In this document: one piece after another, positions 1,642 to 4,461 of the stretch
Numbering within the stretch: position 1 is the first letter of the stretch
Layout: each line of letters starts with the position of its first letter
The notes under the pieces: generated by a model
The model's database searches: none
Told to the model about the DNA's origin: nothing
Seen by the model: only the letters and a program-made list of their open reading frames with translations
Translations under genes and position numbers: made by a program
NCBI GenBank assembly: GCA_963805315.1
Contig: CAWDTQ010000010.1
Span: 84,114 to 148,113 of the forward strand
Length of the DNA: 64,000 nucleotides
Reading direction: 5' to 3'
From: an uncultured delta proteobacterium
GTDB lineage: Bacteria > Desulfobacterota > Binatia > Binatales > Binataceae

Positions 1642-4461
1642 ATGCACAATCGGTATCCGGGTCGGACTCGGCTCGGAATAATGGCTCGAACCTCGGCCGG
1701 CTGGTCGCCGTTCCTTAAAGCACTGGCTCTGCTGACGGTGCTGATGCTCCCCTCGATGGCATCGGGGTCCAATAGCAATCCAATCCTGGTCGGCGGTCCT
1801 CACATAATGCCCAAGGGCAATGTCTTAACGCCGTTCTCAGGAGCGGGCGGCGGCCCCCACCTCACCTACTATGGCGGCAGGGTCGTCTCCACGATGCAGG
1901 TGGTGCAAGTGCTCTGGGGAACAGGCGGCATCGGGACTGGTGCTGGCCAATTCCTTGCGAACGTCAAGGACACTTCTTCGCCCAGCATGGCGACCTTCTA
2001 TCAAGGAGTCCTGAACAGTCCCTACGTCGATTGGCTGGTCGAGTACGATACCTGCACGACCGACAACGGCGGCGGCCAGGGGACGAATCAGAGTATCGGT
2101 CGCGGCGCCTTTGTTAGCCAGGTCGCGATCACGCCGTCCAACACCTCCAATCCCATCGACGACACCGCCATCCAGACCGAGCTGGCGTCGCAGATTAAAG
2201 CCGGCCATCTGCCCGCGCCTACGCACGACGCGGCCGGCAATAACAACACTTACTACGCCATCTTCTTCCCCCACGGGCAAAGTATTACCTTGGGCGGCTC
2301 GGGCTCCTGCGTGCTGAATGGCTTCTGCGCCTATCACGGTACGATAGCCAACGTCACCGGGTTCGGCGAGATTTACTACGGCGTCCATCCTGACATGCAG
2401 GCTGGGTCAGGCTGCGACACCGGCTGCGGCGCCGGCACCGTCTTTGAAAACTATACCTCGGTCGCTTCGCACGAGATGACCGAGACCATCACCGACGCCG
2501 AGGTCGGTCTTGCCAGTAACTTAGCGCCGCCGCTCGCCTGGTATGACAACAACAACGGCGAAATCGGCGACATCTGCAACGCCGAGCAGGGCGACATCGT
2601 AGGCTCGGACAGCGTCACCTACACGGTGCAGAAGGAATTCTCCAACGTCGCCGACAACTGTATCGTCACGCGGACCGCGAACGACTTCTCGATGACGATC
2701 ATGCCCGGGACCAACAATCTCTCGCGCAGCAACACGACCACCTACACGGTCTCGACCGCCGTCAAGTCGGGATCGGCGGAAAGCGTCACGTTCGCCGTGA
2801 TGGGACTGCCGTCGGGCGTCACCGGCGCGTTTGTCCCTCCCTCCGTTACCGCAGGCGCATCGTCCACGCTGACCCTGACCTCGACTGCCGGCGCGACCCT
2901 TGGTACGGACACCTTCACCGTGACCGGCGTCGCCGCGACCAGCAATCACGCATCCTCGGCGATAGTGGTGGTGGGTGGACCGACTCCCACCCCGACCGCG
3001 ACAGCAACCGGAACTCCGACGGCGACCCGGACCGCGACGGCTACTGCCACCGCCACCGCAAGCGCTACCGCAACTCCGACTGCCACCGCGACGCGAACAG
3101 CCACGGCTACCGCCACCGCAACGTCAACCGCCACGACAACCGCGACCGCAACTTCAACGGCAACCGCAACCTCTACTGTAACCGCAACGCCAACTGCGAC
3201 CGCCACGGCAACTCCAACCACTTCGGCCACTGCGACCCCAACCCAGACCGCCACTGCCACCGCGACCGCGACGCCTACTGTGAGCGCAACGCCGACGGCG
3301 TCCGCAACGGCAACTCCAACCACCACGGCCACTGCAACCCCAACTCAGACCGCGACCGCCACTGCGACCGCTACTAACACAGCGACCGCCACTGCCACGA
3401 CCACCGCAACGCCAACTGCCACCTCAACTGCGACCGCCACGGCAACTGCGACTGCGACAGCCACCGCGACGGTGACCTCCACGCCGACCGCAACCCCGAC
3501 TACTTCGATGTCGGTTACTTCTTCGCTCGCGTTCGGCAATGTGGCCGTAGGAACGACTTCTGACAAGACCGTGACGGTGTCTAACAAGGGAAGAAAGTAT
3601 CCGCTAATCGTCTCGAGCGCGACGATGTCGGATCCGGAATATGCTTTGAGCGGGAAAGGAACCTGCGGCGCGATTCCCGTGAAGGTTGCACCCCGGAAAT
3701 CCTGCTCGCTCGGCGTCGCATTCACGCCCGCTTCGCTCGGCTTGCACGACGCAACGCTTGCGCTCAGCGACAACGCCTCGACCAGCCCGCAGCATGTCGC
3801 GCTCTCCGGCACCGGCATCGGCGGCTTGAGCACCTCGAGCACCAGCTCGGTGTTCACCAGCGTGAAGTTCGGCTCCACGGCGACGAACAATTTCACCGTT
3901 ACCAACAATCAGGCGCTGGCGGTGACGCTGAGCGAGAGTTTCAGCGGGACTAACGTCGCCGACTTCTCGATTACCGGCGGCACCTGCCCCAAGGCCCCCG
4001 CCACGCTTGCGGCCAAGACCTCGTGCACGATCGCTGTGACGTTCAAGCCGGGTACGCTGGGAGCAGAATCGGCGATGCTGTCGGTTTCCGACACTCCCGA
4101 TTCGTTCGGCCCCTACGACGTCACGCTCAGCACCGGCCCGACCATCCCGGCCGCCGTCACGCCGACGTCGATGCTCTACGGCACCGTCTCGCGCAAGTCG
4201 TTGAAGACGCTCACCGCCACCCTCACGAACATATCGCCATTCACCCTGTCGATTGGCAGCTCGGTCACCGGCACTAACGCGGGCGATTTCAAGATCACTG
4301 GCGGCACCTGCGGCGCGACGCTTGCGGGCAACTCGTCATGCACGGTCGCGGTAACCTTCAAGCCGACCAAGACCGTCACCGAGACCGCCACGCTGGCAGG
4401 CACCGTCAGCTCCGACCCGACCAGTCCGCACAAAGTGACCCTCAAAGGAAAGGGCTCCTGA
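1642..4461 (+). CDS. Secreted protein: Phi-1/EXORDIUM-like head, Thr/Ala stalk, three C-terminal Ig-like (choice-of-anchor D) domains
   Basis: Signal peptide; LTYYGG..V..VLWG, FCAYHG, SHEMTETITD, AWYD...EIGDIC; TATATP stalk ~2975-3500; repeated FG.V...VTN...F.I...TC...L...SC...V.F.P units. True start may be ATG 1681. Confidence 0.75.
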   Translation: MHNRYPGRTRLGIMARTSAGWSPFLKALALLTVLMLPSMASGSNSNPILVGGPHIMPKGNVLTPFSGAGGGPHLTYYGGRVVSTMQVVQVLWGTGGIGTGAGQFLANVKDTSSPSMATFYQGVLNSPYVDWLVEYDTCTTDNGGGQGTNQSIGRGAFVSQVAITPSNTSNPIDDTAIQTELASQIKAGHLPAPTHDAAGNNNTYYAIFFPHGQSITLGGSGSCVLNGFCAYHGTIANVTGFGEIYYGVHPDMQAGSGCDTGCGAGTVFENYTSVASHEMTETITDAEVGLASNLAPPLAWYDNNNGEIGDICNAEQGDIVGSDSVTYTVQKEFSNVADNCIVTRTANDFSMTIMPGTNNLSRSNTTTYTVSTAVKSGSAESVTFAVMGLPSGVTGAFVPPSVTAGASSTLTLTSTAGATLGTDTFTVTGVAATSNHASSAIVVVGGPTPTPTATATGTPTATRTATATATATASATATPTATATRTATATATATSTATTTATATSTATATSTVTATPTATATATPTTSATATPTQTATATATATPTVSATPTASATATPTTTATATPTQTATATATATNTATATATTTATPTATSTATATATATATATATVTSTPTATPTTSMSVTSSLAFGNVAVGTTSDKTVTVSNKGRKYPLIVSSATMSDPEYALSGKGTCGAIPVKVAPRKSCSLGVAFTPASLGLHDATLALSDNASTSPQHVALSGTGIGGLSTSSTSSVFTSVKFGSTATNNFTVTNNQALAVTLSESFSGTNVADFSITGGTCPKAPATLAAKTSCTIAVTFKPGTLGAESAMLSVSDTPDSFGPYDVTLSTGPTIPAAVTPTSMLYGTVSRKSLKTLTATLTNISPFTLSIGSSVTGTNAGDFKITGGTCGATLAGNSSCTVAVTFKPTKTVTETATLAGTVSSDPTSPHKVTLKGKGS

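Follow-up and report, generated by a model that had tools for sequence, protein, structure and literature searches.

Two genes 42 kb apart, in a stretch of 64,000 nucleotides (nt) from a soil bacterium of the lineage Candidatus Binatus, phylum Binatota (assembly GCA_963805315.1, contig CAWDTQ010000010.1), have unrelated heads and end in the same three-domain cassette. This whole stretch is called the window below; its features are given in coordinates counted from its first letter, and all of them lie on the plus strand. The cassette is a discrete C-terminal module, carried behind a Thr/Ala/Pro stalk by many exported proteins of the genus, and an exchange of these tails among heads is well supported by the comparison of cassette and head sequences. 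We favour, with a probability of roughly 65%, the reading that the exported heads carry on their stalk a mobile three-domain tail that would serve all of them as a common retention or binding module. The domain family is already known; what is new is the fixed combination of stalk and triple C-terminal module, with recurrent and mappable exchange, in an uncultured phylum.

The first of the two genes (gene 1, 1642..4461) encodes a protein of 939 amino acids, whose translation begins like a signal peptide and continues with a head of about 310 residues, an additional immunoglobulin (Ig)-like domain, a Thr/Ala/Pro stalk of about 175 residues (2975..3495) and the triple cassette (3496..4461). The second (gene 2, 42135..46411) joins a sedolisin-type S53 peptidase head and a stalk of about 500 residues to another triple cassette (45446..46411, including the stop codon), which was delimited by alignment and family matches and is 80% identical to the cassette of the orthologous S53 gene of genome G046. 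An initial annotation, made from the DNA of the window alone, had proposed that the two cassettes align without gaps. They do so over 321 residues plus stop each, with 270 of 321 residues identical (84%, BLASTP E=0), and they have the equal length and the positions that it had assigned to them, both running from PTTSMSVTSSL to SPHKVxLKGKGS and the stop codon. As DNA, the 966-nt unit (stop codon included) is 88.3% identical between the two genes, and 82.6% identical at third codon positions. Both copies are found on one 261-kb contig, and 12% of their bases differ.

The limits of the shared DNA are sharp on both sides. In ungapped register, the identity of the two stalks is about 0.55, which corresponds to the background of low-complexity DNA. 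Only the final 60 nt of the gene 1 stalk resemble the other stalk above this background, at about 0.8, and over the cassette's opening 30 nt the identity is 1.0. Directly past the TGA, identity drops to 0.13-0.43. This profile locates the junction where the stalk ends, with an uncertainty of about 60 nt, in line with the initial annotation.

Each cassette is composed of three domains of one family. In gene 1 these are domain 1 (3496..3819), with a synonymous divergence (dS) of 0.198 from its partner in gene 2, domain 2 (3820..4134), covered likewise by family matches, fold model and a dS comparison with the partner, and domain 3 with the stop codon (4135..4461), which gives the protein terminus ...SPHKVTLKGKGS and at whose TGA the similarity to the partner DNA stops. 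The NF012200 model (choice-of-anchor D, curated cut-off 45 bits) matches three stretches in each protein, scoring 125.7 bits in gene 1 and 136.4 bits in gene 2. PF22073 (Cep192_D4, gathering cut-off 35.5 bits) matches with 104.6 and 106.5 bits, and PF15780 (ASH) matches as well. AlphaFold2 models the cassette as three beta-sandwiches (predicted local distance difference test, pLDDT, 88.9), and the top Foldseek matches of the model are ASH proteins of the ciliary central apparatus and the SPD-2 domain of CEP192, with E values from 4e-23 to 1e-11. The profile matches and the predicted fold agree in assigning the cassette to the choice-of-anchor D (NF012200) and ASH/Cep192_D4 families. Two Cys are invariant in each domain and probably form a disulfide. 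The conserved ending SPHxVxLTGTG is the ordinary last strand of the domain, and domains 1 and 2 finish in the same way.

The cassette thus shares with choice-of-anchor D proteins, and with the ASH-Cep192_D4-HYDIN-VesB-CFA65 clan, three domains above the cut-off, a predicted ASH fold and two Cys in each domain. Those proteins, however, also have a PEP-CTERM, LPXTG or T9SS (type IX secretion system) signal, whereas here the array itself is the C-terminus. In the choice-of-anchor families the anchor is something other than the domain itself, as has been stated for choice-of-anchor A (10.1101/2023.03.06.531300). Our literature search found nothing on the function of choice-of-anchor D or on surface proteins of Binatus.

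A census of the cassette and its heads gives the same layout across the genus: a signal peptide, a head, a Thr/Ala/Pro stalk and, at the very C-terminus, the array. We found full-length cassettes in 13 of 24 and in 14 of 22 further Binatus genomes, and the layout in 28 of 47 genomes overall; 16 other genera of the class gave no full-length cassette. We collected 90 open reading frames (ORFs) from 26 genomes. The array is terminal in all 90 (stop codon at most 10 residues past the last domain); 70 finish with the triple and 20 with one or two more domains, and some bear two cassettes. The stalk lies directly upstream in 81 of the 90, with a median of 126 residues. At least eight unrelated groups of heads are found, including S53 peptidases, NHL and other propellers, FG-GAP and Kelch proteins, the head of gene 1 and several groups that have no Pfam match. 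Unrelated head folds with a shared tail confirm that the cassette is a discrete module, as the initial annotation had supposed. In the genome of the window itself there are only two close copies, together with one four-domain copy on contig 7, the tail of an FG-GAP gene and a few remoter arrays, while about 40 ORF pieces have stalks with other tails. Outside Binatus, choice-of-anchor D arrays that are 35-42% identical are common in Acidobacteriota, Chloroflexota and Actinomycetota; most of these are internal and lack a stalk.

The history of the cassettes does not follow that of the heads. When 91 cassettes are placed in a maximum-likelihood tree, the label of the head has to change 43 times, where the minimum would be 8 and the mean of shuffled labels is 59.6. 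The cassettes of our gene 1, our S53 gene and the G046 S53 gene form a clade with 100% support, separate from the cassettes of the other gene 1 orthologues. A head class could be given both to a cassette and to its nearest neighbour in 62 cases; in 31 of these the neighbour sits on another class of head, and 11 of the 31 have that neighbour within their own genome (five reciprocal pairs, from G000, G016, G049, G050 and G055, and one one-way case in G003). One example is a pair of adjacent genes with different heads in G049, which share a tract of about 99% identity from the stalk-cassette junction to about 100 nt past the stop codon. The 5' limit of similarity is at the stalk-cassette junction in the two best-resolved pairs, that of the window and that of G049. 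G021 and G011 are 88% identical over a tract that takes in the cassette, 133 nt upstream of it and about 590 nt downstream, and their heads are unrelated; the G011 contig is short, and a chimera is possible in this case.

Orthologous heads with different tails are found as well. The cluster of gene 1, NHL and FG-GAP genes is syntenic in G049 and G021, and its tails differ: the NHL orthologue of G049 (72% identity) has a triple cassette where the NHL gene of the window has a single Ig-like tail, and the FG-GAP orthologue of G021 (74%) has a triple where that of the window has four domains. The S53 head of gene 2 is 86% identical to its orthologue in G046, which is an intact ORF of 1318 amino acids with a triple cassette. 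In G059 the orthologous head is equally similar (86%; locus L162, G059:C3:41000-47500) and the cassette is decaying, with domain 1 intact, domain 2 frameshifted and domain 3 gone. The S53 orthologues of G007 (79%), G060 (80%) and G016 (58%) carry a stalk and one unrelated Ig-like domain. Because these orthologous heads bear another tail, the S53 tail was replaced in the G000/G046/G059 lineage.

The flanks of the S53 gene show no similarity, either upstream of the start or past the stop codon, to those in G046, G059, G007 and G060. When window positions 41000-49500 are compared with loci L162-L165, similarity begins with the gene itself and is lost within about 17 nt of the stop codon, despite a protein identity of 86%. 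At two loci, a single ORF of an S53 gene contains two complete triple cassettes: L200 (G059:C4:879000-887700, 1942 amino acids) and L023 (G009:C5:341700-349500). The latter has a second stalk between its two cassettes, and the two cassettes of the former are nearly identical, which suggests a very recent internal duplication.

To place the exchange in time, we compared synonymous divergences. The dS between the two window cassettes is 0.235, that between the S53 cassettes of the window and G046 is 0.333, and that between the corresponding S53 heads is 0.396. The initial annotation had named the dS of the anchor against its flanks as a check on its proposal; with a dS of 0.235, the window pair is not recent. 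The order 0.235 < 0.333 < 0.396 suggests that the exchange took place after the split from G046, at a level of about 1.8 sigma on the cassette alone, with rough standard errors. Judged from these values, the common ancestor of the window cassettes is about as old as the split from G046, the nearest sampled relative, or somewhat younger. The cassette has a ratio of nonsynonymous to synonymous rates (omega) of 0.40, the S53 head one of 0.20, and purifying selection has acted on the window cassettes since that ancestor.

The initial annotation had also suggested that heads are exchanged by recombination in the low-complexity DNA of the stalk. Repeated exchange is borne out, both by the 43 label changes against a minimum of 8 and by the orthologues with different tails, but a single crossover in the stalk is not the form that it seems to take. 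For genes 42 kb apart, such a crossover would delete or duplicate the intervening DNA. The events look like two-ended, non-reciprocal replacement or gene conversion, because the tracts are bounded on both sides and because relics of old cassette ends persist. In this scheme, a tail would be copied non-reciprocally from gene to gene within one genome, by gene conversion, tail replacement or patch repair. The 5' joint lies either within the final stalk codons or where stalk and cassette meet, and stalk DNA may plausibly be the recombination substrate. The 3' joint falls within the conserved closing strand (...SPHxVxLTGTG-stop) or a short way beyond the stop codon; for the window pair the tract ends at the stop codon itself, and in G049 it runs on for about 100 nt more.

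The relics lie behind two single-Ig tails of the window, which terminate in ...QFTCTGS/D and form a duplicate pair behind an NHL gene and an FG-GAP gene. The first segment (9768..10482) comprises the end of the NHL gene, with the end of its stalk, a single Ig-like tail (...QFTCTGS) and the downstream DNA; the second (17496..18226) is at the end of the second FG-GAP gene, and the two are 87.9% identical over 734 nt. Past the stop codon of the first single-Ig tail, positions 10294..10335 hold an out-of-frame relic that corresponds to the final ~45 nt of a choice-of-anchor D cassette and is 79% identical to 14604-14646. A second such relic, likewise out of frame and reading ...SDAASPHNVTLTGTGS-stop, is found at 18036..18080 and is 86.7% identical to 14602-14646. 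These remnants mark the 3' joint of an earlier tail replacement.

With regard to function, the functional heads of these Sec-exported proteins are joined to the tail by a long Thr/Ala/Pro linker, and the tail may act alike on all heads, as a module for retention or binding. Through it, the head would stay attached, at the end of a long spacer, to some target shared by all of these proteins, e.g. a polymer of the cell's own envelope or matrix. Such a common role is suggested because one and the same C-terminal tail serves peptidases and non-catalytic propellers behind a spacer, and because in homologues elsewhere this position is taken by a sorting signal or a binding module. The tail would resemble SLH, CWB2 or carbohydrate-binding modules in its action, rather than a membrane anchor.

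A number of points weigh against a mobile retention or binding module. No sorting signal, lipobox, hydrophobic segment or membrane segment follows the cassette, and the proteins stop 0-1 residue past the last domain, so that attachment to the cell is purely something that we infer. A role of the tail in binding substrate, or as a spacer, fits equally well. The triple cassette is an accessory and no core feature of the envelope, because about 40% of the Binatus genomes are without it. As for its mobility, the DNA tree does not settle how the three nearest cassettes branched (approximately unbiased test, p 0.16 and 0.38), and hence neither the direction nor the exact timing of the exchange. A mosaic test on the window pair, in which the longest identical run is 59 nt, is not significant (P=0.058), and the longest exact match common to the two window stalks is 19 nt, inside the last 60 nt. 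Finally, all genomes are metagenome-assembled, and repeats can give chimeric joins, a real risk in fragmented genomes such as G011.

Among the alternatives, the one that survives best is that the cassette binds a substrate or particle, in the manner of a carbohydrate-binding module on a Pro/Thr linker. It would then direct enzymes, once released, to a mineral or an insoluble polymer of the soil, instead of tethering them to the producing cell. We regard this as possible, if on balance unlikely. A head followed by a Thr-rich linker and C-terminal beta-sandwiches is the classical build of secreted glycanases such as CenA and Cex of Cellulomonas fimi, homologues of the gene 1 head carry CBM_4_9 or PPC in the same position, and there is no sorting signal. 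On the other hand, it is hard to see a substrate that peptidases would share with NHL, FG-GAP and Kelch propellers, and carbohydrate-binding families gave no match to the cassette in the Pfam and NCBIfam scans.

The initial annotation had gone further and envisaged a platform for surface display. In the boldest form of this idea, which is ours, stalk and triple would be the recognition and attachment module of a putative display pathway specific to Binatus, in which the stalk junction and the last strand act as built-in recombination joints and heads can be moved on and off. This would give Binatus a combinatorial and fast-evolving surface proteome, but we consider it improbable. Export across the outer membrane is feasible in any case, because the genome has three secretins.

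We also doubt strongly that the cassette as a whole, or its final domain alone, acts as a C-terminal sorting domain for a putative pathway of export to, or attachment at, the outer membrane, comparable to the Ig-like C-terminal domain (CTD) of type IX cargo. The terminal position of the array in 90 of 90 ORFs, its conserved ending, its confinement to one genus and its presence on many unrelated cargo heads would all fit such a domain. However, the ending is a normal last strand that domains 1 and 2 have as well, and with three secretins ordinary type II export is available. Neither PEP-CTERM, LPXTG nor T9SS CTD families are among the Pfam and NCBIfam matches, and Por_Secre_tail, TIGR04183 and their relatives gave no match in the same scans. 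A search of the genome for SprA_N, a marker of the T9SS, gave no match either, and the control genomes were silent too.

That there was no exchange at all, and that old whole-gene paralogy or mis-joins in metagenome assembly at repeated stalk and cassette DNA produced the pattern, is highly improbable. In its favour, all genomes are metagenome-assembled, stalks and cassettes are repetitive, both window genes with diverged tails are frameshifted, and G011 is fragmented, with one contig that breaks inside a cassette. Against it, the head folds are unrelated, the window copies differ by 12% on a single 261-kb contig, the S53 head with the cassette recurs in G046 and G059 and the gene 1 head with the cassette in at least six genomes, most of them of 3-40 contigs, and the tracts end sharply and at reproducible positions.

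If the tail serves its many heads as a shared module for retention or binding, it has counterparts elsewhere. The three SLH motifs, and the three CWB2 repeats of the Cwp proteins of Clostridioides difficile, are each one triple wall-binding module under variable heads. As in those families, many unrelated functional domains of one Binatus genome sit on the same three-repeat terminal module. There is no relation in sequence or fold, and the resemblance is functional and architectural only; no SLH (PF00395) or CWB2 (PF04122) match is present in the Pfam results for five window proteins. Moreover, SLH and CWB2 have been shown experimentally to bind wall polymers of monoderms, whereas Binatus is a diderm with secretins in which binding is what we infer.

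CenA and Cex of Cellulomonas fimi consist of a catalytic domain, a Pro/Thr linker and a carbohydrate-binding module, and are known for domain shuffling. The Binatus proteins share with such secreted glycanases a low-complexity linker, rich in hydroxy amino acids, between the head and beta-sandwich modules, and modules that are shuffled between enzymes. They differ in that their heads are peptidases and propellers and their tail belongs to another fold family, and in that exchange recurs inside a single genus and the ends of its tracts have been mapped. The T9SS CTDs of Bacteroidota cargo are likewise Ig-like beta-sandwiches at the extreme C-terminus of dozens of unrelated exported proteins, but their families are unmatched here, and the Binatus tail has three domains and not one.

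Binatota are abundant, uncultured soil bacteria, and to our knowledge nothing is known of their cell surface. A tail of 321 residues on peptidases and propellers offers a concrete and testable handle on it. The family is also a clean natural case of domain shuffling, in which both tract ends can be mapped, one at the stalk junction and the other in the last beta-strand or at the stop codon, and in which very recent events (~99% identity), intermediate ones (88%) and relics are found side by side. If the tail binds a defined target, it would be a ready-made tag for display or targeting; if it binds none, it still shows how low-complexity linkers and conserved terminal strands can frame modular exchange.

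The head of gene 1 belongs to a family that has no Pfam model. The initial annotation had called it Phi-1-like, a label that finds no support: Pfam is silent at E<=0.1 for the whole head and at E<=10 for its core, and PF04674 (Phi-1/EXORDIUM) has a precomputed match in none of the 120 best homologues. A profile search of the PDB sequences with the head also gave no family. The core (1765..2700) is modelled by AlphaFold2 with a pLDDT of 84 and a predicted template modelling (TM) score of 0.87, and Foldseek returns metzincins as weak matches of the model (E 0.017, TM ~0.3). The invariant H, E, E and D (H..E..E...D) of the segment SHEMTETITD sit on a long helix. More than 1200 homologues of the head exist in Myxococcota and Binatia, and the modules at their C-terminal ends vary (CBM_4_9, PPC, P-domain, MYXO-CTERM or a single Cep192_D4), those of Myxococcota being MYXO-CTERM, PPC, CBM_4_9 or P-domain.

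The head of gene 2, in turn, fits the S53 protease that had been proposed. The Pro-kumamolisin activation domain (PF09286) matches with 101.7 bits, against a cut-off of 23.5, and the serine motif GGTSLSAP (pattern GTSxxxP) can be read in the translation; no model of the catalytic domain was reported at E<=0.01 in Pfam and NCBIfam. The gene is split into two ORFs (42135-44897 and 44936-46411) by a 1-nt frameshift in the stalk near 44715. Three-frame translation of the site (44700..44730), which reads ...ACCTCGACGCGACGGCG..., shows the frame shifting from TATAT to RRRLRRR. This corresponds to a single-base deletion, by which ACGGCGACG appears as ACGCGACG.

The first FG-GAP propeller gene of the window (10653..14653) is interrupted in a similar way, by a 1-nt deletion in a C run near 13560 (13550-13570), where CCCC appears as CCC. 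The two frameshifts are either consensus errors of a long-read assembly or real inactivating mutations. The end of this gene (13544-14653) had been described as a more diverged version of the cassette. It is indeed a diverged relative, 38-48% identical, but its choice-of-anchor D tail (~13390-14653) has four domains, with NF012200 matching four stretches at 179.2 bits, and belongs in the tree to a separate subclade of four-domain cassettes.

Lastly, two neighbouring ORFs of contig C13, both on the minus strand (C13:235257-239879 and C13:243122-246520), have very long Thr-rich stalks of 659 and 345 residues near the N-terminus, followed by large C-terminal domains. Their polarity is the reverse of that of the head-stalk-tail family.

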